A program made the position numbers and the translations under genes. A stretch of DNA of 64,000 nucleotides from Patescibacteria group bacterium (GTDB lineage: Bacteria; Patescibacteriota; Microgenomatia; UBA10105; UBA927), in NCBI GenBank assembly GCA_038062895.1, contig JBBTWJ010000006.1, positions 48,862 to 112,861 of the forward strand. The letters are read 5' to 3'. The notes below the pieces were generated by a model. That model did no database searches. It was not told the origin of the DNA and was given only the letters and a program-made list of their open reading frames with translations. This document shows, in pieces, positions 10,173-46,089 of this stretch (its first letter is position 1; each line of letters starts with the position of its first letter).

Positions 10173-10252
10173 TATTGCTTCCTAACTGTTCTAGAGGTCA
10201 TATTCCCTGAAGAACTGGCTTTTCTTATCAGAAACGTTGGTAAAACAATTGA

Positions 10253-10279
10253 AGGGATCAATTTGCCTGCGGCCGCAAA
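10253..10279. repeat. degenerate half-copy of the 40-bp palindrome found at 11106-11145
   Basis: agggatcaatttgcctgcggccgcaaa matches 25/27 with agggatcaatttacttgcggccgcaat at 11106-11132; overlaps the stop codon and last codons of the PaaX-like gene. Confidence 0.6.
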
Positions 10280-11079
10280 GATTTTGACACCGATAGAAGT
10301 TGAGATTTAACGAGCGCGTTGGCTTTATCCCCCTTCCACCACGGCGGAAGAAGAGCAAACGGGAGTTGCGGATCGTCATTTAAAATCGCAAGGCAACGGA
10401 TCAATGCAAAATGATCAATGCCATCGAGTTCTTCCACGGAAGACAACCACTTTTCATATCGATCATTAAGATTTTCGAGTTTGTAGACCCGAACCAAAAG
10501 TGCCCGAAGGTCTTCCTCGCCAACTGCACCGTCTTTACCCAAATCAGAAACGATGACCGTTCCGGATAACTCTTTTTCGTCGACAAATGACCGAACAAGG
10601 TCTATAGGATTGTATGGTGTAATCCAAACCGACTCTTGTAGCATGGCACAACCAATTCTCCTAAGGAACTCCCTGAGCAGCTCCCGGTCAATCTTTCTGC
10701 TTTCGGGTATATCATAGGTCACCAAATGCATCCGTCCATCCCACGTACGCTTGTCATCGTATTGTGGAATAATCGAAGCTAGCCGCAACTTTCCTTTCCC
10801 CGTAATCTCCGGCAGCGCATTTCGCCGACGTGTCTTTATCCATCCGTTACGCCGAGCCATCTTAAGTGCATTCTTGATGACATCATAGTTAACCTGGTAT
10901 AAATAATGATCTGCTGCAATTTGCGCCCGCCACACCTGACCGGAGGTAGATTGTGGAAGACCAACTTCTCCCATATAAACTACGGTCCACAATGCCAAGT
11001 CGACGGCATGAGAAAATAATCCTTCTGCCAAGGCAAGAGCCGCTCTACTCATAGCTCTCGTAATACCTTTCTTTCTCAT
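10258..11079 (-). CDS. PaaX-like putative transcriptional regulator with Cas2-like core motif
   Basis: 273 aa; central segment HLVTYDIPESRKIDRELLREFLRRIGCAMLQESVWITP matches the Cas2/PaaX-type fold signature (VTYDI...R...LQxSVW); flanked by the palindrome and its partial copy. Confidence 0.5.
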   Translation of the reverse strand: MRKKGITRAMSRAALALAEGLFSHAVDLALWTVVYMGEVGLPQSTSGQVWRAQIAADHYLYQVNYDVIKNALKMARRNGWIKTRRRNALPEITGKGKLRLASIIPQYDDKRTWDGRMHLVTYDIPESRKIDRELLREFLRRIGCAMLQESVWITPYNPIDLVRSFVDEKELSGTVIVSDLGKDGAVGEEDLRALLVRVYKLENLNDRYEKWLSSVEELDGIDHFALIRCLAILNDDPQLPFALLPPWWKGDKANALVKSQLLSVSKSLRPQAN

Positions 11080-11105: not shown

Positions 11106-11145
11106 TAGGGATCAATTTACTTGCGGCCGCAATTAAATTGATCCC
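11106..11145. promoter_or_regulatory. 40-bp near-perfect palindrome (candidate operator) centred on GCGGCCGC
   Basis: agggatcaattta-c-ttgcggccgcaa-t-taaattgatccct: 13-nt arms plus a 12-nt palindromic core, 38/40 symmetric; lies 27 bp upstream of the PaaX-like start and in the divergent region with the histidine phosphatase gene. Confidence 0.6.
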
Positions 11146-11171
11146 TTTAGTCTCATAGAATATCCACACAT

Positions 11172-15930: not shown

Positions 15931-17970
15931 TTACAACACAAGCTCTGTATCTGATGCAAGCTCAAATTTTTTCCGCTCTTTCCCGCCAAGCTTTATGGTA
16001 TATTCGTCACCATTGGTCCCAGGCTGCTTTTGAATAAGAAGCTTATATTTTCCGTCACTGGATTTCACCCCCGACGTGTACGTGAGATCCAGACGGGCGG
16101 TTCCCAACGGATTCACAATGAGGAATCCCTCAAATACCGTCTTACCCAAGCTATCGTACGTCTCCATCGTAACCGGCTTAGTATCTTTGGGGGATTGAGA
16201 TCCGCGGCTCTCCGTAAGTTTGCTGCCCATCGGCGCATAAACGCGCACCCAATTGCGAAGCGGAGCATTCAGACAAAGCCCGCCACTCTCCAGTCCGCAG
16301 TCACTACCGGGGTAGGGATTCTTATATTCAAGCGTCAGCTTCGTGGTGATAGTCCCGTCGCTACCGACCGAAACGTCCTTAACCACTTTTTCTGAAACGA
16401 ACATGTTGGATTTGGCGCCGGCCATATTACTGTTGTTGACATGGAGATAATCCCAGTCTTTTCCTTCTTCATATTTGAGGAGCGTGGCCGTCTCCGTGGC
16501 TACCATGATCCGGCCAGCCATGTTAAAGCTTTCTGCCGCTTTTTGTGCATCACTATCATGGAAATAGGCAAGCACGTGTTTTTGGTTAATCTCGGTCAGA
16601 AGCATCTGAAACAATTGTCCCCAGTACTTAGACGGAGATATGCCCAACGCTTTTTGCATAAGAGTCTGAAGGAGGACCCCTATGATGTCTTTTCTCGCGT
16701 CACGCAAGTACCCCACGGGCCTTGTCGAGTAATCCTCAAGCTCATAGACGGCCTTGGGACAATCGCAGCGCTTATCCGTATCCGCACTAAACTCCCTCCC
16801 GTAGACATGCACAGAACCTAAAATCCTGAGTGCTTCTACCAATACATGCGTATCAACAGCCCATATACCGTCAATTTTTTCTTTACCGGACACAGAATCA
16901 TAGAGCTCTTCAAATTGTTTCATGGAGAGCTTGTAATCGGGAGAAAGATTAGAATCCCTTATATTCAGGTTATATACGCCTTTATGAAACGTGGTAATTT
17001 CCCGCGGAGCGGGGAAGTTTTTTTTCTTGGCTGCATCCAGCGCGTAGATGTCATCGGCTTTTTCCAGAATCGCCTTACCTTTTACGAGACGAAATTGAGC
17101 ATATGCGGTAATGAACCCACCGGTTGCCCGTAGTTCTTTATCATTTTGAAAAAGTACGAGGTACCGTTTTTCCTCTTTGTCTCCTAAGAGCTTCGGAAGA
17201 TTTACGAGCAGTGGTTGTGCATTCACAAATAAATTCGCTGCATTTTCTATGACTTCTTTGGCTTGCACTATGGCATCCCGTACGACTGTACCTCGTACGT
17301 TCTTGGGATACCGATTGGGGTCAATAGCACCTATTTCTTTTCGAAGCGTATCGATATGCGTAGCCATTTCATTGATTTTTGGTGTAAGAGCGCTCATCGT
17401 TTTAACCGCTGTTTGGAGCCGCTCGTCAGCGGTGCCGGAAACAAACTTACTCTTGCCTTTCAAGCCCAAGAGATCCGCGTTCGGTTCCAGGGCTTCAATT
17501 GCGTTATCCCCAGCGCTTAACCCGGCAAATGCGGCGTTGATTCCATGTTCTCCGTCGGCAATATAACTGCCTAAAAAGGGAACGGATTTCAATGCAATCA
17601 TTTTTTTATATTCTTCAGATAATGCAGTTAGCTTTTGTCTTGTAATCATCAAACCCTCTTTCGCTTTGTCCAAATCCTGATTTTTTACGGCGGACCCCAA
17701 CTCGCGCCCGGCAGCGATGGTCTCCTGTGCCGCCGCAATCACGCCGCGCATCGGGAGAAGCATGATACCGATGACCGCAACCGCGATAACGACAAGACCT
17801 AAGGGAATAAAAATAAATTTCCAAGGAAAAGACCGTCTGGAGTTAGCCTGTCGCAATGAGCCGGTAGAATCGGCTTTTGGAGGGGGTACGGTATCTAACG
17901 TGATTTTTTTGAGAAAATCGGGCATACCAAGTAGTAGATTTTCGTTATTTCTTACGAAATAAAAAACCAT
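15931..17970 (-). CDS. DUF4012 domain-containing membrane-anchored protein (true start possibly Met at 17925)
   Basis: 679 aa; single N-terminal TM segment; conserved RATGGFI motif and overall architecture of DUF4012 proteins that accompany polysaccharide loci; 18-nt leader motif suggests start at 17925. Confidence 0.65.
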   Translation of the reverse strand: MVFYFVRNNENLLLGMPDFLKKITLDTVPPPKADSTGSLRQANSRRSFPWKFIFIPLGLVVIAVAVIGIMLLPMRGVIAAAQETIAAGRELGSAVKNQDLDKAKEGLMITRQKLTALSEEYKKMIALKSVPFLGSYIADGEHGINAAFAGLSAGDNAIEALEPNADLLGLKGKSKFVSGTADERLQTAVKTMSALTPKINEMATHIDTLRKEIGAIDPNRYPKNVRGTVVRDAIVQAKEVIENAANLFVNAQPLLVNLPKLLGDKEEKRYLVLFQNDKELRATGGFITAYAQFRLVKGKAILEKADDIYALDAAKKKNFPAPREITTFHKGVYNLNIRDSNLSPDYKLSMKQFEELYDSVSGKEKIDGIWAVDTHVLVEALRILGSVHVYGREFSADTDKRCDCPKAVYELEDYSTRPVGYLRDARKDIIGVLLQTLMQKALGISPSKYWGQLFQMLLTEINQKHVLAYFHDSDAQKAAESFNMAGRIMVATETATLLKYEEGKDWDYLHVNNSNMAGAKSNMFVSEKVVKDVSVGSDGTITTKLTLEYKNPYPGSDCGLESGGLCLNAPLRNWVRVYAPMGSKLTESRGSQSPKDTKPVTMETYDSLGKTVFEGFLIVNPLGTARLDLTYTSGVKSSDGKYKLLIQKQPGTNGDEYTIKLGGKERKKFELASDTELVL

Positions 17971-19823: not shown

Positions 19824-20935
19824 ATAGTTTTATAGAGTCTATAAAGCCTCTCAACAGTTGTCTTCATACCCTGCATAAATAGTTTTTTCCGAAACCGATG
19901 TGCATTTTCAATACAAGCTTGTCTTCCCAGTGATGTTCGTAAAAATCTCCTAACTGCATCAACGATTCCCTGTTTTGACTGTTCATCAAAAAGTATTCCG
20001 GTCTCCCCATCTTTGACAATCTCCCCTATCCCACTTTGGGCAAATGCGATCACTGGTCTCCCCGCAGATTGAGCCTCAACCGCAGCAATTCCGAAGTCTT
20101 CATCTGCCGCAGACAAAAAAGCGCGGCAACTTCCATAATAGGCACTAAGTTCCGCGTCTGTCAAATGCGACGTAACGAACGAAATGGTATCAGATGCATG
20201 GGCGCGAAGCAACTTCTCTTCGTGACCTGACCCTATAATAACAAGTGGCAACTTCAATTCATTGAATGCATCAATAATAAGATCAATACGTTTATAGCTT
20301 ACGAACCGTGAGACAACTAAAAAATAATTTTCTTTTTCACCGTTCTGTTTTCTGTTTACTGCTTTCTGTCTAAATTTCTCGTCGTCCACCGGCGGATAAA
20401 TCACCTTCTCGACACTTCTTCCATAATACGTTTCAATTCTCGCTTTCACACGCTGGGATATGGCTATGTAATAATCCGGACGGCTGCTGCCCACGATATC
20501 CCAGCGCCGGAGAACCGGCGCCATCATCGATAATAGTTTGGAAGATTGAGCATAGTCTTCATACCCGCTCCAAAGATACCGCGTTGGCGTCAAACAGTAG
20601 CAGATATGGAGGGTAGACGGTTTCGTAATGATATATTTAGCCTCCGCCGAGGTGACGCTTATCACAACATCAAAGTCATCAAACGAAAACGATTCGAACG
20701 CCATGGGGGTCACCCAGGGAAACCATTCGTGATGATGTTTGGCTAAAGGCACGTATTGGAGGAATGATGGCTTGATAGTAAATACATCTGCCCACCCCGC
20801 CGTGACAGGATCGTAGACGGCAGTATAAAGTGGGGCTTCCGGCCAAATCTCATGCAAGGCAAGAAGCACCCGTTCCGCCCCACCCCACTTATTAATTCGG
20901 TCATACACAAACACAATACGAGGATGTTTTATCAT
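19820..20935 (-). CDS. glycosyltransferase family 4 (GT-B)
   Basis: 371 aa; N-terminal GT4 domain and C-terminal Glycos_transf_1 motifs (EDFGIAAVEAQSAGRPVIA, E-x7-E). Confidence 0.8.
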   Translation of the reverse strand: MIKHPRIVFVYDRINKWGGAERVLLALHEIWPEAPLYTAVYDPVTAGWADVFTIKPSFLQYVPLAKHHHEWFPWVTPMAFESFSFDDFDVVISVTSAEAKYIITKPSTLHICYCLTPTRYLWSGYEDYAQSSKLLSMMAPVLRRWDIVGSSRPDYYIAISQRVKARIETYYGRSVEKVIYPPVDDEKFRQKAVNRKQNGEKENYFLVVSRFVSYKRIDLIIDAFNELKLPLVIIGSGHEEKLLRAHASDTISFVTSHLTDAELSAYYGSCRAFLSAADEDFGIAAVEAQSAGRPVIAFAQSGIGEIVKDGETGILFDEQSKQGIVDAVRRFLRTSLGRQACIENAHRFRKKLFMQGMKTTVERLYRLYKTI

Positions 20936-20959: not shown

Positions 20960-21784
20960 TTACGTTAATTTCTTCCTCTGGTTCGATAAAAAATTTGAGG
21001 ACTCTATAATACTTTTTCCGGTTTCTTTTTCAAGTTTTTTTCTCGCAACTGCTGCAACACTACCGCCTTTTCGAGCAACAAATCGATGCTGAAAAAAAGC
21101 ATTCGGCTGTTTTTTCTTACTTATTGCTGTCGTAGAAGCTTCCGCCAACATTGTCAGAACCAATTCAAGATTAGTCATATGATCACGAAGATTTTCTTTT
21201 TTGAGATTCTTGTGCTGCTTATAATCGCGGGTCTTCATTCCAGCCCAGGCACGGGTAATATCGTCGGTGAGAATGGCAAATTCCAATCCCTCTTTGACCC
21301 CTCGCTCTTCCCACTCGTTCGTCAATTCTTTTCTAATTTCAATACTTTTCAGTCTTTGGTTAATCCAATCATCGCTTCGCCCGAGATTCCGGTAGGCTTT
21401 TAATGCCCGATTGATCGCCTTTTCTGGGTCTTGAATTTCTTCCACACGTTCATACCCAACCCGGGCAAGCCATAGCTTGAATGGTTCAGCCTTAGGGGAT
21501 GGAATAGATTGAATTATACGAAACACGGATTCCGTATCCGCAGCATCAGTGAGGTATTCCTTGCCATCTATTGCTCTCATTTTCAGTTGGTTACATTTTG
21601 TAACCACCTGACTACTTTCTTTCTTCAAACGAAACTTCATAACTTTCCAATAACTACGAGCATTCGGACTACTTGTTAATGCCTGGATGACATCCACCAC
21701 AGAAAACCACCATTTCTCTCCTTTTTCGTCCCAAACCCGACGAATTTTCTTCCCTTCAAAAATAGCTAAATCTCGTTTCTTCAT
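20960..21784 (-). CDS. Bro-N domain / DNA-damage-inducible protein D (DinD)-like protein
   Basis: 274 aa; N-terminal IRRVWDEKGEKWWFSVVDVIQALT matches Bro-N (antirepressor) domain; C-terminal EFAILTDDITRAWAGMKTRDYKQHKNLKKENLRDHMTNLELV aligns with E. coli DinD C-terminal region. Confidence 0.7.
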   Translation of the reverse strand: MKKRDLAIFEGKKIRRVWDEKGEKWWFSVVDVIQALTSSPNARSYWKVMKFRLKKESSQVVTKCNQLKMRAIDGKEYLTDAADTESVFRIIQSIPSPKAEPFKLWLARVGYERVEEIQDPEKAINRALKAYRNLGRSDDWINQRLKSIEIRKELTNEWEERGVKEGLEFAILTDDITRAWAGMKTRDYKQHKNLKKENLRDHMTNLELVLTMLAEASTTAISKKKQPNAFFQHRFVARKGGSVAAVARKKLEKETGKSIIESSNFLSNQRKKLT

Positions 21785-22941
21785 ATATTCTCGTAGACCC
21801 TGAGCGTATCAGAGACAAGCTTAAACCACGAATAGCCATCTAATATAATGTTTTTCGGTTTGACTACATTTTGTGACATCTTTTGAGCAATATCTCCTGG
21901 ATCTTGTGGATTAAAGTACGTCGCTTGACTCCCGAGTATTTCATGAAAAACCGGAATGTCAGATACAATTACCGGGCACCCAAAAGAAAGCGCTTCAAGC
22001 GCCGGCAATCCGAATCCTTCCATGAGAGACGGAAATACAAAAGCAATGGCATGGGCATAGAGATTGGCCAGTTGCGCGTCGTCGGCTTGTCCAAAATAGA
22101 GAACGCTCTCACCAAGATTCATAGACGCAGCAAGTTTTTTTATCTTCCGGTAGAAAAAATCGTCTTTCCCGACTAGCACCAATTTTAAATTCTTTGTCAA
22201 TTGTGAATTGTCAATTGTTAATTGTTGAAATGCCCTCAAGAGCATTTCCAAATTCTTATGTGGATACGCATTCCCAACGTATAAAAAGTAAGGATTCTCA
22301 ATAATTCTTTTTTGACTTTTGACTTTCCCGCCTGCAACGCTTTGCGTAGCATTGCGGGCAGATGACTTTTGACTTTTCCAGCCAGAGGCTGGTCCGCCTT
22401 TGGCGGAGACTTTTTCATCCACCCCCTCATACGTCACAACAATTTTTTTCGGTTGCACATGTAAATGATCAATAATTTCCTTCTTTGTCGTTAGGGAAAC
22501 AGCGATGATAGTCCTCACCCGCCGGAGACCCACGGCAAGGGCAATCCTGTATCCGACGCGTCGTAATTTATATAATATCCACGGCAAGGTCGTCGCCCTG
22601 CCGGTATCGAAGTGGAGGATCGTCAGGTCGTGAATTGTCGCCACCATGCGGCCTGGATAAAAAATAGGAATATTGAAATATGGAATATGCACGAGGTCAA
22701 GCCGGGCTTGAAAAAGTAACCAGGGCATGATCAGCTGCTCGGACACGCTATGCCATCCTACATCTGCCAATACCTTTTTCCATCGTGGGTTTGGGAGTTC
22801 AAAACTCGTATATTCTTTTTTCTTTAAAAATATGGTGTATTCATTTATCTTGTCCTGGTGACCAATCTCACGCACAAGATTCCGGATATATCTTCCGACA
22901 CCGGTTTCATTAATAAGTCTCGCATCGATACCTATGTTCAT
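21781..22941 (-). CDS. glycosyltransferase family 4 (mannosyltransferase-like) carrying an in-frame repeat-element insertion
   Basis: 386 aa; MNIGIDARLINETGVGRY GT4 N-terminus; EGFGLP motif in C-domain; central low-complexity insert SAKGGPASGWKSQKSSARNATQSVAGGKVKSQK encoded by the hairpin repeats at 22321-22412. Confidence 0.8.
   Translation of the reverse strand: MNIGIDARLINETGVGRYIRNLVREIGHQDKINEYTIFLKKKEYTSFELPNPRWKKVLADVGWHSVSEQLIMPWLLFQARLDLVHIPYFNIPIFYPGRMVATIHDLTILHFDTGRATTLPWILYKLRRVGYRIALAVGLRRVRTIIAVSLTTKKEIIDHLHVQPKKIVVTYEGVDEKVSAKGGPASGWKSQKSSARNATQSVAGGKVKSQKRIIENPYFLYVGNAYPHKNLEMLLRAFQQLTIDNSQLTKNLKLVLVGKDDFFYRKIKKLAASMNLGESVLYFGQADDAQLANLYAHAIAFVFPSLMEGFGLPALEALSFGCPVIVSDIPVFHEILGSQATYFNPQDPGDIAQKMSQNVVKPKNIILDGYSWFKLVSDTLRVYENI
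22369..22412. repeat. 44-bp double-hairpin repeat element, copy A (in-frame inside the GT4 gene)
   Basis: ttgacttttccagccagaggctggtccgcctttggcggagactt; hairpins CCAGCC-aga-GGCTGG and TCCGCC-ttt-GGCGGA; a degenerate related segment immediately upstream (22321-22368) forms CCCGC...GCGGG nested hairpins. Confidence 0.7.
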
Positions 22942-23876
22942 AAGAGTGAACGGAGTTTAATACCAATAAGGATAAACGAATAGACCAAAAATCCATACCG
23001 GTGACGGTAATGTTTGCTATAAAATAATTTCATCGCATCATAAAAATATTGTTTTGTTCGGCGCCGCGTTTGCGCGTCAGGATGACCTAATCCGCTTTGA
23101 TGTTTTTTATGGATTATGGAAACAGCTGGATAAAATACTATGCGATGGTTACTTGCTCTGATACGGAAACACCAGTCAATATCTTCTCCATACATAAAAA
23201 ATTTCTCGTCGAATAATCCAATCTGATCGATGACGCTTCGTCGTACCAAAAAGAACGCACCGGAAATGCAGTCTACATCATGGATATCTTTCAATGACCT
23301 AAATCCCTGATGGTACTGTCCAAAAAGCCGGGATGTTCCGAACATTTTCTCGAATCCCATAAAATACGTGAACGATGCCCACGGAGTCGGAAATCCGCGG
23401 TGACATGCAGGATCGAGTGATCCATCAGCAAGATTCACCCGACACGTTATCGCGCCAACATCGCGGTTGGCATCCATATACCCTTTGAGTTCACCCAGCG
23501 TCCCCGGGGTCATTTCTGTATCAGAATTGAGAAGCAATATATACCTACCCCTGGATGCACGGATTCCTTGATTGTTCGCCGCCGCAAACCCCACATTTTT
23601 TTCGTTTTGAATAAGGGTTAAATTTTGACTTTTCCAGCCATAGGCTGGTCCGCCTTTGGCGGAGACTTCTTCAGGGCTTCCATCATTTGAAGCGTTATCC
23701 ACAACAATCACTTCCCACCGGTCGCCCTTTGTTTCAGAAGCCGCAAGTGAGGCCAAACAAGCACGCAACACCTCACGCGTGTTGTAACTGACTATGACGA
23801 TGGAAAGATCAAATGATTCTTTTTGCGGTTTCATACCAGACGCGGTCCAACGCGCGAGCGATAGTACCCCACGCAT
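22938..23876 (-). CDS. glycosyltransferase family 2 (GT-A) carrying an in-frame repeat-element insertion; probable start Met at 23834
   Basis: 312 aa; FDLSIVIVSYNTREVL...VVDNASNDGS GT2 motifs, DxD; insert EEVSAKGGPAYGWKSQ encoded by repeat copy B. Confidence 0.8.
   Translation of the reverse strand: MRGVLSLARWTASGMKPQKESFDLSIVIVSYNTREVLRACLASLAASETKGDRWEVIVVDNASNDGSPEEVSAKGGPAYGWKSQNLTLIQNEKNVGFAAANNQGIRASRGRYILLLNSDTEMTPGTLGELKGYMDANRDVGAITCRVNLADGSLDPACHRGFPTPWASFTYFMGFEKMFGTSRLFGQYHQGFRSLKDIHDVDCISGAFFLVRRSVIDQIGLFDEKFFMYGEDIDWCFRIRASNHRIVFYPAVSIIHKKHQSGLGHPDAQTRRRTKQYFYDAMKLFYSKHYRHRYGFLVYSFILIGIKLRSLL
23625..23668. repeat. 44-bp double-hairpin repeat element, copy B (in-frame inside the GT2 gene)
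   Basis: ttgacttttccagccataggctggtccgcctttggcggagactt; 43/44 identical to copy A, same orientation. Confidence 0.7.
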
Positions 23877-25002
23877 ATTCCCGTTCGATTGTTTTTCTCG
23901 CGTTTATTGTTATCTCGTTTCGTTTTTTAGGCGACTTGATGAACCCGGCCACAGCGGCAATAAACTCGTCTTCGGTGTTTCCAATACATAATTCCTTATT
24001 ATGGGTCACGTTTAAACCCGTAGCCCCAAGCGTCGTCGTAACCACCGGCAACCCACTCGCCATTGCCTCCAATATCTTAAAACTCGTTCCGCCGCCGATC
24101 CGAATAGGAGCCAGAAGAACATCTGCTTTTTGAAACTCTTCTTCAATATTGGTTACTTCTTCAAGAAGAATAGCTTGACGATCATGGACGAGCTTTCGTA
24201 ATGGATCGGGCATACTTCGGCCAACTATCCGTAGAGTCGATCCGGGGTAAATCTTCTGAATCTTGGGCCAAATCGACGTCACCAACCACGATACGGCATC
24301 ACGATTCTGCATCCAGTTGAAACTCCCCACAAACAAAAAGACTGGGTGATCTCCTATTTTCTTCGTTACCGATCGAAACGAATCAACGTCAACGCCGTTA
24401 GGAACCACCGTGACCGAACGGGCGGCCCTCCGGCTTTTCCGGATGACCCGTGCGTCATCTTCCGATACGGCTATGACATGCCTGGCTTTTTTCCATACAT
24501 ACTTTTCCCAAAACATAAGCTTAAGTACATCCCAGTAATATCCGGGGCGCAGGAGGGAAAAACGAAATCTGCGTACGTATTCCGTATAAACGGCATACTC
24601 TATGTTATGCGTGGCCGTGACTATCGGGATGGCTATTTTGGGAAGACACGGCCACACATACCAAGGTTCGATATGGACTAGGTCATACGCACCCGTTTCT
24701 AATTCCCGGGCAATCTTCCGGCGAAGCTCTGCGAGGTCATAGGATGACAATAAGAGCGGTCGAATCCCCAACACTGACCGTATCACATAGTTCGCCTGCC
24801 AAGCAGACCCACGGTACGCGGTTATAATTTTTTTACAAAACGAAAGATCTTTCTCATACTGTTTTTCAGACAGATTCCGCAGAAACGTGACAAGGGTAAT
24901 CTCATGGTGTTTACTTAAACGTGAAAGAAGATTATATATCCGAACTTGTCCCCCAGAATAGAGTGGATACGGCAGAAGCGCGGAAACAAATAATACTTTC
25001 AT
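23809..25002 (-). CDS. glycosyltransferase family 4 (GT-B)
   Basis: 397 aa; MKVLFVSALLPYPLYSGGQVRIYNLL GT4 N-domain; C-domain E-x7-E region. Confidence 0.85.
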   Translation of the reverse strand: MKVLFVSALLPYPLYSGGQVRIYNLLSRLSKHHEITLVTFLRNLSEKQYEKDLSFCKKIITAYRGSAWQANYVIRSVLGIRPLLLSSYDLAELRRKIARELETGAYDLVHIEPWYVWPCLPKIAIPIVTATHNIEYAVYTEYVRRFRFSLLRPGYYWDVLKLMFWEKYVWKKARHVIAVSEDDARVIRKSRRAARSVTVVPNGVDVDSFRSVTKKIGDHPVFLFVGSFNWMQNRDAVSWLVTSIWPKIQKIYPGSTLRIVGRSMPDPLRKLVHDRQAILLEEVTNIEEEFQKADVLLAPIRIGGGTSFKILEAMASGLPVVTTTLGATGLNVTHNKELCIGNTEDEFIAAVAGFIKSPKKRNEITINARKTIEREYAWGTIARALDRVWYETAKRII

Positions 25003-25060
25003 AATGCATACTCTCTCGTTACTTCTTCCTTACTACCAACTACCTACTACCCACTATCAA

Positions 25061-26527
25061 CTACTCCGTGCTCCCTGCCTTTGGTTTTGTCAGGTCGATG
25101 ATAGCAAACCGGTCGTTTCTCACTACAACGGTATAGAGATTAGCCAAATCCCGCGTTTCCCAATCATTATCCGTCGGTGATACCGTCACGTAATGCGTCG
25201 CTCCCATCTCCAGTTTTTTTTCTATATCAAATCCAAGCGGCCACCCTTGACGGTTTGTCTGATACAAAAAAGTGGTATCTCCGTTATACGGCGCGATGAC
25301 CCTCGCATCCTTCGGAAGCAATCTATCTGCCTCCCGCCCGGCCTCGACGATATCCGGCCGGTTAATCCAATAATAGGTTCTGATGGTGTACCAGGAAAAA
25401 GCAAACATAAATAAGAAACAAATAGCAGATAGCAGATAGCAGATAGATCGGGAAAAAGGATTATGAGAAAGAAGAAATGCAAATCCCTTCCCTACATATA
25501 CCGCGACAATGGGAATGAACACTATTTGATAGTAATCGTGCTGCACATTACCGCGCGCAATGATGATGACATATGCAAGTACTCCAATGGTCCACAAGCG
25601 AAAAATCCACCCTTCTTTTTTAGACGGAACCAAAAGGCCTCCTAACCCAAGTGGTATAAGTCCCCAATATCCGAGCATTAATTCTCCCAACCGCTTGGCA
25701 AACAGCCAGTAAAACCATGCTCCTTTGAAGCGGATGTTGCCTTCGTTAAAAAGCCATAGATAAACCGGAATCCCTTCTGGATACTGCAAAATCCACTGTC
25801 GCCACCACCATAATGGAAACAAACTGATAGATGAATAAACACATAATCCAATAACCAACGAGAAGGATAAACCGAAACGGCGCCAAAACAAATATGGGAT
25901 GGGCAAAAGCAAAAACGCCGCTGTGGGTTTAACGAGCAATGCGACTCCCCCGGCTATAGCGGCAAATATCACGAGTAACCAATCAATCCGCTTATCCTTC
26001 CGATCATTATGCTCTGACAATCGAAACATAATATATACGCTGAGTACCGCCCAAAACACCATAAATGGCTCTGGAAGGATAATTCTTCCATAAAAAATAC
26101 TGTACGGAAGTACGGCATAGACCAATGCGCCAATTGTCGCGGCAAGCCTTCCGACAGTCACCGTCATCAGAAGATAAACCAAAATGAGGGTTCCCACGGA
26201 GGCGGAAACAGTCACCAACCGGAGGATTATTTCCATAGGAACTTGTGGCAATAACCTGCTCACCCCGTATGCCACCGACTGATAGAGCGGAACTTCGACC
26301 ATCCGCCATCCCATAGGATTATCTTTTCCGGAAGGGATGTTGGAGAGATCATCAAACCGTGGATGCAGAAGGTCTAAGCCGAACTTAGTAAAATTCCGTG
26401 CCACAGCCGCAGTATCGCTCTGACGCCAGCTGTGCCAATCTGCGACCGCATTCCCGAGGCCGTATAAACGCACGGTCACGGCCAGAAGCGAGATCACAAT
26501 AAGAATAAAAAACTCTATCTTTTTCAT
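25061..26527 (-). CDS. GT-C family membrane glycosyltransferase (PMT_2/ArnT-like dolichyl/undecaprenyl-phosphate-sugar dependent)
   Basis: 488 aa polytopic membrane protein; N-terminal loop with conserved D/E residues (RQSDTAAVARNF...) typical of GT39/GT83 proteins. Confidence 0.65.
   Translation of the reverse strand: MKKIEFFILIVISLLAVTVRLYGLGNAVADWHSWRQSDTAAVARNFTKFGLDLLHPRFDDLSNIPSGKDNPMGWRMVEVPLYQSVAYGVSRLLPQVPMEIILRLVTVSASVGTLILVYLLMTVTVGRLAATIGALVYAVLPYSIFYGRIILPEPFMVFWAVLSVYIMFRLSEHNDRKDKRIDWLLVIFAAIAGGVALLVKPTAAFLLLPIPYLFWRRFGLSFSLVIGLCVYSSISLFPLWWWRQWILQYPEGIPVYLWLFNEGNIRFKGAWFYWLFAKRLGELMLGYWGLIPLGLGGLLVPSKKEGWIFRLWTIGVLAYVIIIARGNVQHDYYQIVFIPIVAVYVGKGFAFLLSHNPFSRSICYLLSAICFLFMFAFSWYTIRTYYWINRPDIVEAGREADRLLPKDARVIAPYNGDTTFLYQTNRQGWPLGFDIEKKLEMGATHYVTVSPTDNDWETRDLANLYTVVVRNDRFAIIDLTKPKAGSTE
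25423..25447. repeat. heptanucleotide tandem repeat (atagcag)x3.5 inside the GT-C gene
   Basis: atagcagatagcagatagcagatag read directly; 21 bp keeps frame, encodes YLLSAIC-like repeat on minus strand. Confidence 0.7.
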
Positions 26528-31148: not shown

Positions 31149-31251
31149 ATGTTTTGTAGTTAGTAGTTAGTAGTTGGTCCCTCGGCTCCGCTCGGGATCC
31201 TGAGCTTGTCGAAGGATAGTTGGTAGTATATTACCCACTAATCACTAATCA

Positions 31252-32406
31252 CTACTCCCTACCTGCTACCTCTTCCAACACCTCCAACGTTTTCCTTGCT
31301 GCATGTTCCCACGTAAACTTTTTCACCTGCTCAAGTCCTTTTTTCAACCGCCAACGTCCTTGCATCAGATTTCGCTCTCGCACCGCAGCGAGAAGCCCCC
31401 TTGTAATACTCTCTGTATTCTCGGGATCCACATACACTGCTGCTTTCCCCGCTATCTCCGGCAGGCTGGAAACGTTACTCACGACGACAGGAACATTCTT
31501 CGCCATCGCCTCCAGAACCGGTAGTCCAAATCCTTCATAAAGGCTGGGGAGAGCAAAACAAAGTGCTTGTTCATAGAGCCTCGTGAGATCTTCATCCGGA
31601 ACAAAATCCAAAAATTTTACCCGGTCCGCGATCCCCAACTGCGCCGGTGCTGCCAAGATCTCTTCATAAAGCCAGCCCTTCTTTCCCACAATCACCAAAT
31701 CAATATCTCCAAACCGCTGCTTATTTGTGCTCAAGAATCCACTAAATGCCTCGATTAGGCGCACATAATTCTTCCGTGGCTGAAGCGTCCCCACAGACAG
31801 AATATAGTTTTTTGAAATATGATATTTTTCTTGTACATTTGCTTTCTGTTTTTTGCTATTTGATACTTCTGTCATAGTCAATCCCGGATACGTCACCATC
31901 ACATTCTCCGGCGTAACCCCGTAGGCTTTGATTATAGCATTCTTAGTAAACTCACTGATGGTGAGTATCCGCCTCGCGTGTGCGGCAGAATATGCCGTCC
32001 AGTGTGTAAGCTGGTAGAGGTCATCAGATCGAAAAAGTTCTGGGTAATGGAGGTACGATACGTCCATGATGGACATAACCCGAGGGATGCCGATGAACCT
32101 TGGGATATAATGCGTCGGAGTAAATACCACATCAGCTTGAGGCTGATCAACCATCAAAGCTAATGGCAAACGGAATAAGGTCCAAAATTTCTTTGGGGAA
32201 AGCACATGGTAGCGCCACCAATCTGTCTCGACAGGCATGTCCGGAAGCGGTGCACTCGGAAGATAGATTCTAAAATTGTGATGAGGGATGCCTGATGCGG
32301 GATGGGAGGATAAAAGATAGAGATGTTTGAGGATCTCATACGCATATCGGCCTATTCCGACACGCTCTCTAACGTTTGCTTCATAGCCGTCTATTGCAAC
32401 GATCAT
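31252..32406 (-). CDS. glycosyltransferase family 4 (GT-B)
   Basis: 384 aa; MIVAIDGYEANVRERVGIGRYAYE N-domain; C-domain EGFGLPVLEAMA. Confidence 0.85.
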   Translation of the reverse strand: MIVAIDGYEANVRERVGIGRYAYEILKHLYLLSSHPASGIPHHNFRIYLPSAPLPDMPVETDWWRYHVLSPKKFWTLFRLPLALMVDQPQADVVFTPTHYIPRFIGIPRVMSIMDVSYLHYPELFRSDDLYQLTHWTAYSAAHARRILTISEFTKNAIIKAYGVTPENVMVTYPGLTMTEVSNSKKQKANVQEKYHISKNYILSVGTLQPRKNYVRLIEAFSGFLSTNKQRFGDIDLVIVGKKGWLYEEILAAPAQLGIADRVKFLDFVPDEDLTRLYEQALCFALPSLYEGFGLPVLEAMAKNVPVVVSNVSSLPEIAGKAAVYVDPENTESITRGLLAAVRERNLMQGRWRLKKGLEQVKKFTWEHAARKTLEVLEEVAGRE

Positions 32407-36793: not shown

Positions 36794-37525
36794 TTATTTT
36801 GACAAATATCCCTTCCTAATCAACTGTCTATAAAATTCCATGATATTCTTTATATATTCCAACGTGTCATGGATAAGCCGAACCGAAGATTTTTTATCAA
36901 ATCGTCGAACAAAAAGCACCGGCTCTTCGCGTATCTTCAGTCCTTCCAAACAGGCAAACGTCATAATTTCCGTGTCCCAGAACCAACCGCTGTTCTTTGT
37001 CTTCTTGAGGATTGGCAGTATTTTTTTACGATCAAAAAACTTATATCCCGTCTCTGTATCTTTCAACGGTATTCCAAAAATCGACCGCACCAGCCACGAG
37101 TACCCGCGGGAAAGAATCGCCCGGTGAAACGACGTGAGTCCTTCCCGGTATACCCGTAACCCCGTCACCACATCCGCTTCCCCACCTAGGATCATGCGGA
37201 CGAACTGTGGTATATAGACTGGTGATACCTCAAGATCAATATCAATAAACCCGACGACCTTCCCGCGCGCGATGGCAATCCCATCCCGCACCGATTTTCC
37301 CCGACCCTGATTTACGTCATGATAGACAGCCCGGAAATTTTTATTCTTTTTGACGAGCGACGCAATGATCTCAGCGGTCTTATCTTCGCTTTTATCATCG
37401 ACAAAAATAAGCTCGTAAGTTAATACACTGCCGCGTAATACGGATATAACGCAATCAACACTTTGCCGGAGATGCGCCTGCTCGTTATAGCAGGCGATGA
37501 TGAGAGAAAGATCAATCCGTTTCAT
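36794..37525 (-). CDS. glycosyltransferase family 2 (polyprenyl-phosphate sugar synthase-like)
   Basis: 243 aa; MKRIDLSLIIACYNEQAHL...VDDKSEDKT, DIDL DxD motif. Confidence 0.85.
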   Translation of the reverse strand: MKRIDLSLIIACYNEQAHLRQSVDCVISVLRGSVLTYELIFVDDKSEDKTAEIIASLVKKNKNFRAVYHDVNQGRGKSVRDGIAIARGKVVGFIDIDLEVSPVYIPQFVRMILGGEADVVTGLRVYREGLTSFHRAILSRGYSWLVRSIFGIPLKDTETGYKFFDRKKILPILKKTKNSGWFWDTEIMTFACLEGLKIREEPVLFVRRFDKKSSVRLIHDTLEYIKNIMEFYRQLIRKGYLSK

Positions 37526-38817: not shown

Positions 38818-38838
38818 TGATCACAAGGAGATCTTTTA

Positions 38839-38885: not shown

Positions 38886-38903
38886 AAACATGCTTCACGG
38901 TGT

Positions 38904-42888: not shown

Positions 42889-43949
42889 ATGGCAGGAGTA
42901 TCCTCGGTCTCAAGCTCAAGCCCGTCGCTCAAGTATTGAAATTGCTGTGGTCCCATCGTTTTGGCCCACGCGACCATCTTTGCGACACCCTGCGCAAGCG
43001 TCACACTTGTTTTATACCCCAATAGCTTCACCGCCTTGTCATGAGTACAATAGGCCTCCTTAACTTCCTGAGGTCGGAGAGCCAGGTATTTGGGCTTCAA
43101 GTGCTTTGGGACGTTCCCATCAGGAAAAAATGTTTGGATCACAATATCGGACAACTGATTGATCGTATACTCCTCTTTCGGTCCGATATTAATTATCTCT
43201 CCATTGACAGCATCTAAGAAGCCAGTTTTTACAAAATACGGATTAAAGTCATCTATGTAGGTGAATGCCCGTTTTTGCTCGCCATCTCCATAAATATAAA
43301 AATTCTTGTTGCTGAGAAGACAATTGATAAATATCCCGATGACATTCCTATACGGATCCGCTAAATTTTGCTTCGGACCATAGACGTTATGCGGTCGAAC
43401 GATGACATACTCAAATCCATGAACTTTTGATAAAATTTCAGTAGCCTCCTCCATAGCGGTCTTGGCTATGGCATAAACATCTTCAGGAATCCGCCTCATG
43501 CTTTCCGTAAAGGGAGTCTGTTGAGCACCATAGACACTCATAGAACTCGTCAGGACTACTTTCTTTAAACCATGACGGATACTTGGAATAAGTGTATAAA
43601 GATAAGCAAGATAATTACGTTCAGTCGCCGATATGGGGGTAAATTGACTCCTGCCTTCTGTGGCGTCAGCGGCTAAATGGTAGAGAAGTTCCGGTTTGAC
43701 TCCTGCGATATATTTTTCGGTTTTATCTTTATCACGCAGATCCAATACCGTAAATTTTGATTTCGGACTCACATTTCTGGTATACCCTCCCGAAAGGTCA
43801 TCGACGCCATATACCTCGTGACTCCCCATCGCGACAAGCGAGTCCACGAGATGGCTTCCCATGAAACCGGCAGCTCCGGTCACTAGAATTCTCATGGGTT
43901 TATTATACAGGGACTCGCCTTTCTTTGGAAGCGAGGAAGACCAATGCAA
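42867..43949 (-). CDS. NAD-dependent epimerase/dehydratase (SDR; UDP-glucuronate decarboxylase/4-epimerase-like); probable start Met at 43895
   Basis: MRILVTGAAGFMGSHLV Rossmann motif; YxxxK present (YAIAK). Confidence 0.8.
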   Translation of the reverse strand: MHWSSSLPKKGESLYNKPMRILVTGAAGFMGSHLVDSLVAMGSHEVYGVDDLSGGYTRNVSPKSKFTVLDLRDKDKTEKYIAGVKPELLYHLAADATEGRSQFTPISATERNYLAYLYTLIPSIRHGLKKVVLTSSMSVYGAQQTPFTESMRRIPEDVYAIAKTAMEEATEILSKVHGFEYVIVRPHNVYGPKQNLADPYRNVIGIFINCLLSNKNFYIYGDGEQKRAFTYIDDFNPYFVKTGFLDAVNGEIINIGPKEEYTINQLSDIVIQTFFPDGNVPKHLKPKYLALRPQEVKEAYCTHDKAVKLLGYKTSVTLAQGVAKMVAWAKTMGPQQFQYLSDGLELETEDTPAIWSKKLI

Positions 43950-46089
43950 CTGCCAAAACAGTCAAAAGAGAAACTCCCAAGCCCCATGTCACGTAGTTCT
44001 GCGGCTCAAATTCTACGACGCCTTCATATGTACCGGGGGTAGAAATTAAAAAGCTATTTAATCCTTGCGGTGATCGCTCGGACTTAACCATCGTATTTCC
44101 CACTCTTAACACCCACCCAGGATGGTAACTCTGGGAAAAATAGACGGTAGCCGGAGCATTAACGGTCAAAGAAACCGCGTATTGATCCATACGGATTCGT
44201 CTGTATGTAATCGACTCGTTGGTCGAAACCCAAAAAAGATCTCTATGCCGTGGAGTCTGGTAGATCGTAAGATTGCCGGAACGGATCTTGGTAAGCCATC
44301 CGACCCCATCAAGAACCGTTTCGTATTCCTGCCGCTTCTTCTTATCATATTTTCGATCACTCAAAAATAACTCACCCAGCGAGTCATATGGGATCATGAC
44401 ATACCCTATCCCCAAATCTTCTAAAAGCGCCTTACCCGTGGGCGCCTCCAGTTTCACTTTCAAATCAGCGGCCGTCGTAACGGCAAAGAGTGGCTCGCTC
44501 TCAATCTGCATATGATCAAGTGTCCCATAAGAAAACCGCTGTAGACGGGGCACCCAAAGCGTGCGGGCAAAATTTGTCTGCGCCTGCAAGAAATGCTCAA
44601 GTTCCGCGTATTCCTGCGGCACCGTCTGCGCAACATACGTCCCCCCAAGCTGGCCGAGGACAGCGGGACGGATGGTGAAAAACCAGAAGAAGAGGAAGGT
44701 AGCTAGTAGTATGTAGTTCGTAGTAAGGAGGATACTATTTGTCTTTTTTGCCTTGCTACTTACCACCTGCTGCAAGCTACGGAAAAGTTCGCTTAGTTGC
44801 TTCAGCGTAAACGGAATCAAGATTGAATATGCTAGCGCGATCAACACGTACCATTTCGTGGGATCCCGGAACATCGCAAATCCGGGGACGTGGGTAAACA
44901 TCCATTGATACACGATTCCAAACGGTTCCTGCGCGCCCTTGGCAAGAAATGTGCCCAGTATGGCAAGGAGAGCAAAAAATCCTATCTGTTGTCTGCTCTT
45001 TGCTCTCTGCCCCGCCCATGCGAGCGCTGCAAACGCGAGCACTGGTAGCACGAGAAACTCAGGCTGTAAAAAATATGTCTTTCCAAACACATTCTCCGGC
45101 CAGTTGGGATGGAGAAGCGAGAGAGCGTGGGAAAAATCCGCGAAACTATAAAATTTAATCGAATCTATTGACGTGTATGCCGACCCCAAATCTCCGATCG
45201 GGTTACTTCTCATGGCCACCATCGGGACGACCCAAAACGCATTAAGCAGAGCTGCAATACCTACAGCAAACGCAAAACCAAGAAACGTCCAGAGTAATAC
45301 TTGAAAAAAATGTTCTTTTATATTAACGAAGTAACCCTTCCTCGCCGGCCCGCTTCGCCCGCCTAGCCGCGAGGCTGGCCGAATCGAGGCGAGCAGGCGG
45401 GGAACGAACGAACTAACAACCCACAATGAAACCCCTACCATCGTCACGTACGCAATCCGGGGATCGATCATGAGTTGAAACCCTAATGATAATCCTGTAA
45501 TCAAGGAATATTTGTTATTTGCTATTTGATATTTGTTATTTACACTCTGGTCGCATACTAATGTTAAAAGCTTGATAAAGCTCGCCAGAACAAGAGGAGC
45601 CAGACCGTAGGCAATGGCCACTCCCATCTGCCCGCCCCCCGTCACCATGAGGATGTAGGTATTCGTGGTATAGACGAGCGACGCGACTATCCACCACGGA
45701 AACATATCTCTTAAGTCTTGAGTCTTAAGTCTAAAGTCTTGAATCACAGCTTCCCAGAGCTTTTTGGACCCGTAAACAGATAACGCGATAAACAACCCAA
45801 ACCATCCGACTTTATACACAATATTCCATGGGATGTGCAGCCACTGATTAAAAATGACTACGATAGCAGAGCCAAAAACATGCAATCCGAGGAGGGGCTG
45901 CATACCCCCAATCCCATTCCCTAACCATGATTGCCAAAGTGTAGGGAGAAGAGAGAAACTCCTCAAAAAGTCCTGGGTATAATATGGCCAATCTCCGCCA
46001 ATAATCAACGGGTTTAAAAGCCAATTACGGAATATATACAAAACCGTAATAAACACAACCGATACACAAAAATAATAATATTTTTTCAT
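43903..46089 (-). CDS. large GT-C-like polytopic membrane protein (paralog 1 of 3)
   Basis: 728 aa; ~12 N-terminal TM segments, large extracytoplasmic middle region, C-terminal TM anchor; N-terminal loop LNPLIIGGDWPYYTQD resembles LKPGEMDLGGDNSRLYFYD of the 46950 and 53368 proteins; carries GC-rich hairpin insert at 45340-45405. Confidence 0.5.
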   Translation of the reverse strand: MKKYYYFCVSVVFITVLYIFRNWLLNPLIIGGDWPYYTQDFLRSFSLLPTLWQSWLGNGIGGMQPLLGLHVFGSAIVVIFNQWLHIPWNIVYKVGWFGLFIALSVYGSKKLWEAVIQDFRLKTQDLRDMFPWWIVASLVYTTNTYILMVTGGGQMGVAIAYGLAPLVLASFIKLLTLVCDQSVNNKYQIANNKYSLITGLSLGFQLMIDPRIAYVTMVGVSLWVVSSFVPRLLASIRPASRLGGRSGPARKGYFVNIKEHFFQVLLWTFLGFAFAVGIAALLNAFWVVPMVAMRSNPIGDLGSAYTSIDSIKFYSFADFSHALSLLHPNWPENVFGKTYFLQPEFLVLPVLAFAALAWAGQRAKSRQQIGFFALLAILGTFLAKGAQEPFGIVYQWMFTHVPGFAMFRDPTKWYVLIALAYSILIPFTLKQLSELFRSLQQVVSSKAKKTNSILLTTNYILLATFLFFWFFTIRPAVLGQLGGTYVAQTVPQEYAELEHFLQAQTNFARTLWVPRLQRFSYGTLDHMQIESEPLFAVTTAADLKVKLEAPTGKALLEDLGIGYVMIPYDSLGELFLSDRKYDKKKRQEYETVLDGVGWLTKIRSGNLTIYQTPRHRDLFWVSTNESITYRRIRMDQYAVSLTVNAPATVYFSQSYHPGWVLRVGNTMVKSERSPQGLNSFLISTPGTYEGVVEFEPQNYVTWGLGVSLLTVLAVALVFLASKERRVPV

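Follow-up and report, generated by a model that had tools for sequence, protein, structure and literature searches.

In a 64,000-nt stretch of DNA from a Patescibacteria group bacterium (GenBank assembly GCA_038062895.1, contig JBBTWJ010000006.1; the whole stretch is referred to below as the window), two adjacent genes that encode glycosyltransferases of families 4 (GT4) and 2 (GT2) each contain a copy of a 30-nt unit made of two 15-nt hairpins. Comparison with syntenic operons indicates, with a high degree of confidence, that this unit is a mobile insertion. The best overall explanation, which we consider fairly probable, is a non-autonomous mini-element composed of two inverted 15-nt hairpins, which is tolerated in protein linkers and possibly mobilized by a nuclease. 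DNA loci that were fetched and compared with the window are denoted by L-numbers and database proteins by P-numbers; feature coordinates are listed in Table 1.

The mobile unit is defined by filled and empty sites in the syntenic orthologous operons of loci L120 and L124. The GT2 site is empty in L120, where the coding strand reads GAA GAA GTC^AAA AGT; at the marked position, the window holds exactly TCCGCCAAAGGCGGACCAGCCTATGGCTGG (30 nt), whose two 15-nt hairpins are CCAGCCnnnGGCTGG and TCCGCCnnnGGCGGA. Relative to the L120 sequence GAAGAAGTC^AAAAGTC, the GT2 copy is thus an exact 30-nt insertion without target duplication. On the plus strand, the empty site is GACTTTT^GACTTCTTC (the target sequence behind the longer identity can be written as GACTTTT^GACTTYTTC). 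The GT2 site of L124 consists of (GTCAAAA)x4. The GT4 site shows three states: the (GTCAAAA)x4 tract of L124 is uninterrupted and free of hairpins, L120 carries the 30-mer with a single synonymous change that breaks a stem (GGC>GGA), and the window has the 30-mer, heptamers, a 36-nt hairpin (22327-22362), and heptamers again. An earlier note, made from the window sequence alone, had placed a further degenerate module before the GT4 copy; that module takes the form of this 36-nt hairpin with TGACTTT heptamers on either side and is missing from the 91%-identical GT4 gene of L120. Four more pairs with an exact 30-nt difference are found as paralogs within single loci, where an intact tRNA gene lies beside a partial copy, namely, in L029 (T-loop, TTC^AAAT), L058 (TCG^AACC), and L084 and L018 (anticodon loop, CTC^AAAA). 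In all five filled/empty comparisons, the boundaries lie exactly at the feet of the hairpins, and a search for target-site duplications, which the earlier note had proposed as a check, found none. Because filled and empty sites differ by exactly 30 nt and the remaining flank is already present in the empty L120 site, the mobile unit is 30 nt long, not 44 bp as the earlier note had it. The identity of the 44-mer (or 51-mer; see below) beyond these 30 nt is (GTCAAAA)n heptamer target sequence that is older than the insertion.

Most likely, the GT2 copy arose from a copy embedded in (GTCAAAA)n, such as the one in GT4, and we infer that the module has spread among (GTCAAAA)n tracts in the lineage of the window as a non-autonomous mobile unit. 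The alignment of the two genes (window 21781-23876 versus L120 3001-4967) is a mosaic, with 91.4% DNA identity in GT4 and 75.5% in the adjacent, overlapping GT2 (57.8% at third codon positions), which implies recombination or exchange within the operon.

The 44-mer occurs on the plus strand at 22369-22412 with no mismatches and at 23625-23668 with a single mismatch, located in loop 1, so that the reported repeat of 43/44 identity in the same orientation stands; none of 100 shuffled windows contained any match to it. Ungapped identity between the copies extends over 51 nt (22367-22417 versus 23623-23673; 96%). Each copy has, as noted earlier, two hairpins with a 6-bp stem, which are perfect and have 3-nt loops (22378-22392 and 22393-22407; 23634-23648 and 23649-23663). 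The entire window has six GC hairpins of this type, versus 0.68 expected from dinucleotide shuffles, and four of the six are those in the two copies. The predicted in-frame gain of a peptide in both genes was likewise confirmed: the copies encode VSAKGGPASGWKSQ and VSAKGGPAYGWKSQ on the minus strand, and their shared frame gives SAKGGPA(S/Y)GW. A covariance-model search of the window with filters turned off returned the two known copies as the only canonical ones and detected neither the 36-nt module nor the 45334-45402 block described below. At the repeats, a search of the 22000-24000 region against Rfam with E-values up to 10 matched no family.

The in-frame position of the segment in both genes is essentially the only observation that would be expected if the segment were an ancestral part of the proteins, a product of chance, or an artifact of assembly. 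The closest orthologs lack the segment; in alignments of 24 GT2 and 28 GT4 proteins, the peptide was found in none except the GT4 of L120, and for neither gene did orthologs show the peptide without the DNA similarity. The insert position in these orthologs is a hypervariable linker that often carries heptamer-derived peptides, such as KSQKSKVKS and ISNFKFKIS. The window belongs to a Patescibacteria MAG (metagenome-assembled genome) from Hainich groundwater, with Gottesmanbacteria as its nearest relatives. Both copies are present in three of three independent Hainich assemblies (L121 to L123), the GT4 copy is also found in an unrelated Logan assembly, and natural loop variation and compensated stems are seen over more than 100 assemblies. 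With the shuffling result added, the probability of this explanation is close to negligible, and the view that the segment is an insertion rather than an ancestral protein feature is borne out.

To assess the spread of the element, we scanned a one-genome-per-species collection with a degenerate two-hairpin pattern. The 30-mer core was found in at least 119 loci with flanks unrelated to each other, from which 114 unique copies and 109 non-redundant loci were used in the analyses; the window copies are therefore members of a dispersed family of small structured repeats, as the earlier note had supposed. The matches listed come from all major classes of Patescibacteria and from Omnitrophota, Planctomycetota, Lentisphaerota, Kiritimatiellia, and Verrucomicrobiota, as well as, judging by the labels of the metagenome-assembled genomes (MAGs) alone, from Gammaproteobacteria, Bdellovibrionales, and Leptospira; no cyanobacterial genome is listed among the at least 119 loci. 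In the flanks of the 114 unique copies among the matches listed, T occupies position -2 in 63% and C position -1 in 47%, and A occupies positions +1, +2, and +3 in 76, 90, and 61%, respectively. The usual target among these matches is thus TC^AAA; the window copies sit at GTC^AAAA. Both orientations occur, and the one seen in the window is the minority orientation, with about 20% of the matches listed. Within the literature library searched, there was no description of this family, of its tRNA-loop sites, or of the GIY-YIG association described below; the matches to sequence strings were unrelated.

Loop 1 has the form nnA (A in 90%) and loop 2 the form Tnn (T in 93%), so that the 30-mer is a quasi-palindrome of two related inverted 15-nt hairpins; their stems, CCAGCC and TCCGCC, are related, and the reverse strand still scores 17 to 19 bits with the covariance model. 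Pair T16-A30, which is not constrained by the pattern, becomes C-G in four of five cases; the covariance model recovered copies with the compensated stems TCAGCC/GGCTGA, CCAACC/GGTTGG, TCGGCC/GGCCGA, and CCCGCC/GGCGGG; and double changes occur in 5 of 12 pairs, a level reached by none of 500 shuffles of an alignment that was itself ascertained by the pattern and the model. These switches, compensated variants, and double changes show that the hairpins are under selection as structures. The model also found single 15-nt modules and copies with a hairpin nested in a loop, and nested insertions are seen in L053 (6796-6854) and L019 (6822-6887).

The cores are often embedded in tandem heptamers. 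Among the matches listed, 11 of 114 copies (9.65%) lie within such tracts versus 0.23% of random positions, a 42-fold excess seen for period 7 only. Cores are also found in intergenic heptamer tracts and in the loops of partial tRNA copies. In L018 (600-900) and L074 (1570-1770), there are tandem arrays of units of about 100 to 160 nt, each of which is a partial 5' half of a tRNA with a core in the anticodon loop; the L018 array also has a single 15-nt hairpin in the D-loop, and both arrays lie upstream of an intact tRNA and contain no open reading frame (ORF).

A search of IMG/VR returned one match in 2.9 million viral contigs, which lies between genes and has neither a GIY-YIG gene nor a tRNA in its vicinity, and BLAST searches against plasmids and phages returned none; these results lend no support to spread by phages or plasmids. 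In one Moanabacter MAG (L008, L012, L031, L033, L040, L049, L064, L087, L090, L109, and L118), a core lies about 150 nt downstream of a gene for a 556-aa DDE transposase (Pfam ID PF01609), within a multicopy insertion sequence (IS) of about 2.3 kb that has carried it to at least 12 sites. This IS was rejected as a parent element; it is a DDE IS with the core as a passenger.

Several features make the module easy to accommodate in proteins. It is 10 codons long, and its stems, as read from the sequence, are free of stop codons whichever of the six frames is used, so that it never truncates a protein or breaks its frame. Of the 114 copies among the matches listed, 84 are located in open stretches that span 120 codons or more, versus 86% for random positions, and 43 of these 84 coding copies use the same SAxGGPAxGW frame as in the window, a bias that may come from selection on the peptide or from a tie between codon phase and the target TTT^GA. 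Recurrent hosts among the matches listed are DnaJ (11 loci, in the Gly/Phe-rich linker), the CCA-adding enzyme (6 loci), and MiaA (L020, L028, and L056, recognized from the translation of the flanks). Given that identical stems occupy the same protein site in distant lineages, repeated insertion seems simpler than inheritance. This range of hosts, together with the tRNA fragments and intergenic heptamers, leaves no special link to surface-glycan enzymes of the kind suggested in the earlier note.

The same note had asked whether the inserts fall in surface loops, and in AlphaFold models both lie in low-confidence or disordered flexible linkers, far from the catalytic motifs. In GT4, residues 180-209 have a predicted local distance difference test (pLDDT) score below 50 and no secondary structure, as befits a disordered interdomain linker; in GT2, the insert falls between a helix (53-60) and a strand (72-76), and the block at 61-70, with a mean pLDDT of 65, is the lowest-confidence connector. 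Copies also decay, by GGC>GGA in L120 and by GGCTGG>GGCCGG in L130; such decay argues for neutrality, and nothing indicates that selection for the diversification of loops, raised in the earlier note, has taken place. The module would persist wherever its Gly/Pro/Ser/Ala-rich decapeptide lands in a disordered linker, as in GT4 and GT2, and the window inserts are, with good probability, neutral passengers rather than an adaptive device of glycan enzymes.

The ORFs of the 109 non-redundant core-bearing loci were clustered all against all. Besides host genes and their operon neighbors, a single ORF family recurs among the matches listed, that of GIY-YIG proteins of 79 to 86 aa; no transposase or integrase family, Y1 included, is recurrent among the ORFs of these loci. 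The core-bearing loci listed contain eight small GIY-YIG genes in seven loci. A canonical core lies 9 to 20 nt from the GIY-YIG ORF in L014, L021, L023, and L047, with one on each side in L014 and L047, and variant hairpin pairs are located upstream of the ORF in L020, L077, and L092. Since this core-based set has an ascertainment bias, a second set, consisting of relatives of two of the GIY-YIG proteins, was fetched from metagenomes by protein similarity alone (72 loci, 67 analyzed, 57 unique). In the 57 unique loci, the 130 nt that precede the start codon hold 15-nt GC hairpins at a density of 9.84 per kb versus 0.295 per kb elsewhere, a 33-fold difference. Of the 60 loci whose upstream sequence was long enough, 54 have one or more upstream hairpins, usually a pair. 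L142 and L139 contain 30-mers identical to the GT2 and GT4 copies of the window.

The GIY-YIG genes are also associated with tRNA genes. In 37 of 49 loci, a tRNA gene on the same strand starts no more than 150 nt past the GIY-YIG stop codon, and some of the ORFs overlap the first bases of the tRNA with their 3' ends. In 23 of 33 loci, the sequence upstream of the ORF is an incomplete copy of the 5' part of that same tRNA and, in the loci that were inspected, the hairpin pair sits in the D-loop or the anticodon arm of this copy. Group I introns (RF00028, 64 to 90 bits) are found in the anticodon loop of the downstream tRNA in L047 (4856-5087), L134 (1683-2025), and L021 (6736-7063), and in most other cassettes the downstream tRNA has no intron; Rfam searches of the cassette loci gave tRNA and group I intron families only. 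The proteins match the GIY-YIG domain (Pfam ID PF01541) with E-values of 5e-13 to 3e-18, and their closest PDB structures are those of UPF0213 proteins (1zg2, 4e-14; 1ywl, 2e-11), followed by the structure-specific endonuclease SLX1 (7cq2, 7e-8); NCBIfam provides no name for them. In L092 (6233-6557), L047 (4509-4775), and L021 (7335-7060), the GIY-YIG ORF enters the downstream tRNA, so that its last codons encode the 5' acceptor strand and the stop codon TAG starts the D-arm (TAGCTCAG).

The filled and empty sites and the flanks show that the module enters short sites of the TC^AAA type with exact boundaries and leaves the target unduplicated. The gene neighborhoods suggest, in addition, a mechanism in which it would be mobilized in trans by small UPF0213/SLX1-like GIY-YIG nucleases; such a structure-specific nuclease would cut at the feet of the extruded hairpins. 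The case for this step is that hairpin pairs adjoin the nuclease gene, the same logic that connects REPINs, doublets of repetitive extragenic palindromic (REP) sequences, with REP-associated tyrosine transposases (RAYTs) (PMC3116915). Judged from this analogy and from gene neighborhoods, the GIY-YIG protein is a candidate for the mobilizing enzyme that we put forward tentatively. More tentative still is the broader proposal that the 15-nt hairpins may be cis sites of an undescribed selfish system, in which GIY-YIG nucleases move 15- or 30-nt modules and which would also explain the small dispersed repeats (SDRs) of cyanobacteria and, possibly, the heptamer tracts. If true, a structure-specific nuclease would here take the place that the transposase has in the REPIN/RAYT partnership, with decapeptide insertions in conserved proteins across Patescibacteria and bacteria of the Planctomycetes-Verrucomicrobia-Chlamydiae (PVC) group as its by-product.

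A number of points weigh against such a nuclease-driven mini-element. Neither the 64-kb window nor the syntenic loci contain a GIY-YIG gene, only about 5% of the solo cores among the matches listed adjoin one, and the two canonical copies in the window show no sign of a recent burst. Adjacency is a correlation, and the cassette hairpins could be regulatory, could be protective (immunity of the duplicated target), or could simply accumulate in dead tRNA copies. The insertion sites in the cassettes (AGTT^GGCTGT, CTTTT^AAGG, and CAGC^GGTAG) do not fit the solo TC^AAA consensus, and the protein-similarity set covers a single GIY-YIG subfamily. The search pattern forces perfect stems, so the invariance of stems in the at least 119 loci is built in, and their abundance and taxonomic range are those of a sample. 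Finally, the three copies known from this lineage (in GT4, GT2, and the membrane protein of L130) share orientation, near-identical loops, and GTCAAAA flanks, which fits microhomology copying or gene conversion as well as transposition.

This last point makes copying without a dedicated enzyme a serious rival for the local event that led from GT4 to GT2: template switching or short-homology gene conversion between heptamer tracts would have produced the GT2 copy from that in GT4, at a distance of 1256 bp. The GACTTTT/GACTT flanks common to the two window sites are older than the insertion; the three lineage copies are alike down to their position in the heptamer, and in the orientation that is in the minority in the family; and the association with heptamer tracts is strong. 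What such copying does not account for is the presence of the 30-mer in unrelated flanks across genomes (DnaJ, MiaA, tRNA loops, and varied heptamers), where there is no homology to prime conversion and a short target consensus is seen instead, or the boundaries that always fall exactly at the hairpin feet. Overall, we consider this rival unlikely.

The observations that point to selection on structure could also be read as signs of a functional module, either an RNA or DNA signal (an antisense terminator, an mRNA stabilizer, or a protein-binding palindrome) or a diversifier of protein loops. Stems are kept through compensatory change, the sequence is nearly identical across phyla, and the hairpins are almost always located upstream of the GIY-YIG ORFs, 9 to 25 nt from the ATG, from where they could control expression; on the plus strand of the window, GACTTTTT follows hairpin 2. 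However, no Rfam family was found, the module occurs in either orientation and in any context, dead tRNA fragments included, orthologs manage without the insert, copies decay, and the inserts lie in disordered linkers distant from catalytic motifs. A functional module is therefore quite improbable, more so than the transposase-based alternative considered below. With regard to the mini-element itself, the near-identity of the 30-mer across phyla suggests either horizontal spread or a shared, strongly constraining partner protein.

Several other identities were tried and rejected. An intrinsic terminator does not fit the majority orientation, which has an A-run, not a T-run, after the hairpins; a sequencing adaptor or assembly artifact does not fit the natural variation in loops and stems and the independent assemblies; and an archaeal-type tRNA intron does not fit the interrupted tRNA copies, which are partial and lie beside intact genes. 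A CRISPR repeat was rejected as well. The miniature inverted-repeat transposable element (MITE), one of the two kinds of element named in the earlier note, had to be dropped, as there are no terminal inverted repeats apart from the hairpins, no IS-derived ends, and no target duplication, and no parent IS was found.

REP-like, the other label used there, holds as an analogy, the unit being a doublet of two inverted hairpins, and fails as a statement of membership, because the GTAG or CGTC tag and a RAYT gene are absent. REPs and REPINs are short GC-rich palindromes that form doublets of inverted hairpins and higher-order arrays and occasionally lie within genes (PMC3116915, PMC3733652), and their mobilization by RAYTs was itself inferred from the RAYT gene being flanked by repeats (PMC3116915, PMC3733652). 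Here, too, an enzyme gene is flanked by hairpin pairs, but its product is a nuclease of the GIY-YIG type and not a Y1 HUH transposase; the two hairpins adjoin without a spacer; and the copies are not predominantly extragenic and are conserved between phyla, rather than genome specific.

A related possibility is a minimal derivative of an IS200/IS605- or RAYT-type system, in which a Y1 HUH transposase acts on single-stranded DNA and places the element, without duplication, on the 3' side of a short target. Consistent with this are the lack of target duplication, the short 5' motif NTC^, the resemblance of the inverted hairpin pairs to REPINs (PMC3116915), and the existence of REP families in PVC bacteria (PMC3733652). 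Against the features of IS200/IS605-derived elements such as the palindrome-associated transposable elements (PATEs), which have subterminal hairpins, no target duplication, and a fixed short target 5' of the insertion, the picture is mixed: the module causes no duplication and prefers NTC^, but its hairpins are at the very ends, one target can receive it in either orientation, and no TnpA is encoded nearby. IS608-type ends require guide and cleavage sequences, and an element that ends at the feet of its hairpins has no space for them. Since, in addition, transposase families, Y1 or other, do not recur among the 109 core-bearing loci listed, no GTAG or CGTC tag is present, and GIY-YIG is the only recurrent neighboring nuclease among the matches listed, we regard a Y1 HUH system as improbable.

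The closest described kind of element, along with the Rickettsia palindromic elements (RPEs), is the SDR, with the likeness judged from described features. SDR4, SDR5, and SDR6 of heterocystous cyanobacteria, the subject of work by Elhai et al. in 2008, are reportedly hairpin repeats of 21 to 27 nt with compensatory changes, precise insertion, nesting, and embedding in heptamers, and no transposase is said to be known for them. All of these features recur here at a scale of tens of nucleotides; the present unit, in contrast, has 30 nt in two 15-nt modules, its hosts are Patescibacteria, PVC bacteria, and other MAGs instead of cyanobacteria, with nearly the same sequence across phyla, it frequently resides in-frame in conserved proteins, and it is associated with tRNA fragments and GIY-YIG genes. 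To our knowledge, the latter association has not been reported for SDRs. Set against SDRs, the novel features are the construction from 2 x 15 nt, the near-identity across phyla, the frequent presence in conserved proteins, the sites in tRNA loops, and the link with GIY-YIG genes. SDR5 has been found inserted precisely inside highly iterated palindrome 1 (HIP1) (PMC4390886), and the origin of SDRs has been called unresolved (PMC3116915).

RPEs are palindromic repeats that lie in-frame in unrelated protein genes and are translated as fold-compatible peptide segments (PMC10969869). The likeness is in the in-frame insertion in unrelated genes (here, those for GT4, GT2, DnaJ, MiaA, and the CCA-adding enzyme). 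RPEs differ in being about 100 to 150 bp long (PMC10969869), with a conserved peptide of their own, and in being limited to Rickettsia, whereas the present element has 30 nt, occurs in several phyla, and has a defined short target and an association with heptamers. Membership in the RPEs was rejected because of the wrong size and host taxon.

The arrangement of the cassettes also invites comparison with another group of GIY-YIG genes. Free-standing GIY-YIG homing endonuclease genes, such as those of the T4 Seg proteins and of F-CphI ("collaborative homing"), adjoin their target genes. Similarly, a small GIY-YIG ORF lies here directly upstream of a tRNA, which bears an intron in L021, L047, and L134. 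The proteins described here differ in having only about 80 to 86 aa and comprising a UPF0213/SLX1-type catalytic domain alone, and the cassettes differ in carrying a partial 5' tRNA copy with hairpin pairs and, in most cases, an intronless tRNA.

How repeats too small to encode anything move has been an open question since SDRs were described in 2008. In the present family, filled and empty sites are clean, the unit is fixed at 30 nt, the target is short, and the gene of a candidate enzyme is flanked by the repeats, so that the question can be tested with a single protein of 80 aa and oligonucleotides. The module repeatedly adds 10 residues to conserved proteins of uncultured bacteria, namely, DnaJ, MiaA, the CCA-adding enzyme, and glycosyltransferases, and it interrupts tRNA-like sequences; both effects bear on the calling of genes, the detection of tRNAs, and the alignments and phylogenies of Patescibacteria.

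Table 1. Repeat copies, target flanks, heptamer tracts, and host genes in the window (TRF, Tandem Repeats Finder)
Feature	Position	Strand	Details
Core copy 1, 30-nt double hairpin	22378..22407	+	CCAGCC-AGA-GGCTGG + TCCGCC-TTT-GGCGGA; in GT4, minus-strand reading SAKGGPASGW; covariance model 58 bits, E = 1e-15
Core copy 2	23634..23663	+	Loop 1 is ATA; in GT2, minus-strand reading SAKGGPAYGW; 56.4 bits
Second module, 36 nt	22327..22362	+	Long imperfect hairpin CCCGC-C-TGCAACGC-TTT-GCGTAGCA-TT-GCGGG; encodes SARNATQSVAGG; lineage specific
Tandem heptamer tract, one side of 36-nt module	22310..22326	+	TTTTGAC x2.4 (coding strand GTCAAAA); TRF
Tandem heptamer tract between 36-nt module and core copy 1	22363..22377	+	TGACTTT x2.1; holds coding-strand insertion site GTC^AAAA; TRF
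Flank of copy 2, target sequence older than insertion	23623..23633	+	TTTTGACTTTT; outside mobile unit; empty L120 site has the adjoining GACTTTT^
Other flank of copy 2, target sequence older than insertion	23664..23673	+	GACTTCTTCA; empty L120 site already is GACTTCTTC
GT4 glycosyltransferase host gene, 386 aa	21781..22941	-	Pfam IDs PF00534, PF13439; insert is residues 178-211, linker between two Rossmann-like domains
GT2 glycosyltransferase host gene, ORF of 312 aa	22938..23876	-	Pfam ID PF00535; database protein P0001 starts at 23834, 298 aa; insert is residues 58-67 of P0001
Composite GC-rich hairpin block, 69 nt	45334..45402	+	Replaces 3 nt of L129 ortholog; encodes PRLLASIRPASRLGGRSGPARKG; contains degenerate CCAGCC..GGCT(A)GG
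Membrane protein, 728 aa, host of the composite block	43903..46089	-	No Pfam family
Heptamer tract in the same membrane-protein gene	45509..45541	+	TATTTGT x4.7; TRF

A third GC-rich block, which the earlier note had placed at 45340-45405 as an in-frame insertion in a membrane protein, is a real insertion and can be refined to 45334-45402 by comparison with L129, relative to which it is a 66-nt net insertion of nested GC palindromes; a 115-nt segment folds at -46 kcal/mol. It is probably a related composite of the hairpin family, although the covariance model does not recognize it. In L130, the ortholog of the 728-aa membrane protein has a canonical core of the same variant and in the same orientation at GTC^AAAA, within the tract that is equivalent to 45509-45541.

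Heptamers are common in the window in general. The motif found next to the copies has two matches versus 0.04 expected, and period 7 accounts for 12 of the 32 TRF rows, with many different units. Such tracts are found at 20343-20369, 22194-22225, 25032-25064, 25422-25446, 31156-31175, 31236-31254, 45509-45541, and 45709-45740; the unit differs each time, and several lie within ORFs. Orthologs have other heptamer units at equal protein positions, for example, LTIDNSQLTKN in the GT4 of the window versus IRNQESRIRN in L124, and it looks as if heptamer tracts turn over rapidly at fixed sites. The interdomain linker of the GT4 orthologs in L126, L127, and L128 contains other hairpin pairs in other heptamer tracts. 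In L126 (1501-2679, GT4 ortholog P0134), these are two double modules, TCCCGC-GAA-GCGGGA + TCTCGC-TTT-GCGAGA and TCCGCC-AAA-GGCGGA + TCAGCC-TAT-GGCTGA, which lie in a CTCAAAA heptamer tract in two different reading frames.

Other repeats in the window include a 13-nt single GC hairpin on the minus strand at 16997-17017 (CTTC-CCCGC-TCC-GCGGG-AAAT), located at a TTC^AAAT-type site in a DUF4012 ORF; it matches the covariance model weakly (E = 3.5), as either a short relative or a chance occurrence might. A 36-nt inverted repeat (10252-10287 versus 11112-11147, 81% complementary, with GCGGCCGC) brackets a 273-aa ORF at 10258-11079, and there is a near-perfect 20+20 palindrome at 11107-11146. Between two glycosyltransferase genes, the minus strand carries a gene with a Bro-N domain (Pfam ID PF02498) at 20960-21784 that is not present in the syntenic operon of L124; this domain is typical of regulators of phages and mobile elements. 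Direct repeats of 63 nt (87%; 37462-37524 and 38835-38897) and 151 nt (71%; 49578-49728 and 54634-54784) lie in neighboring ORFs, which are presumably paralogous genes.

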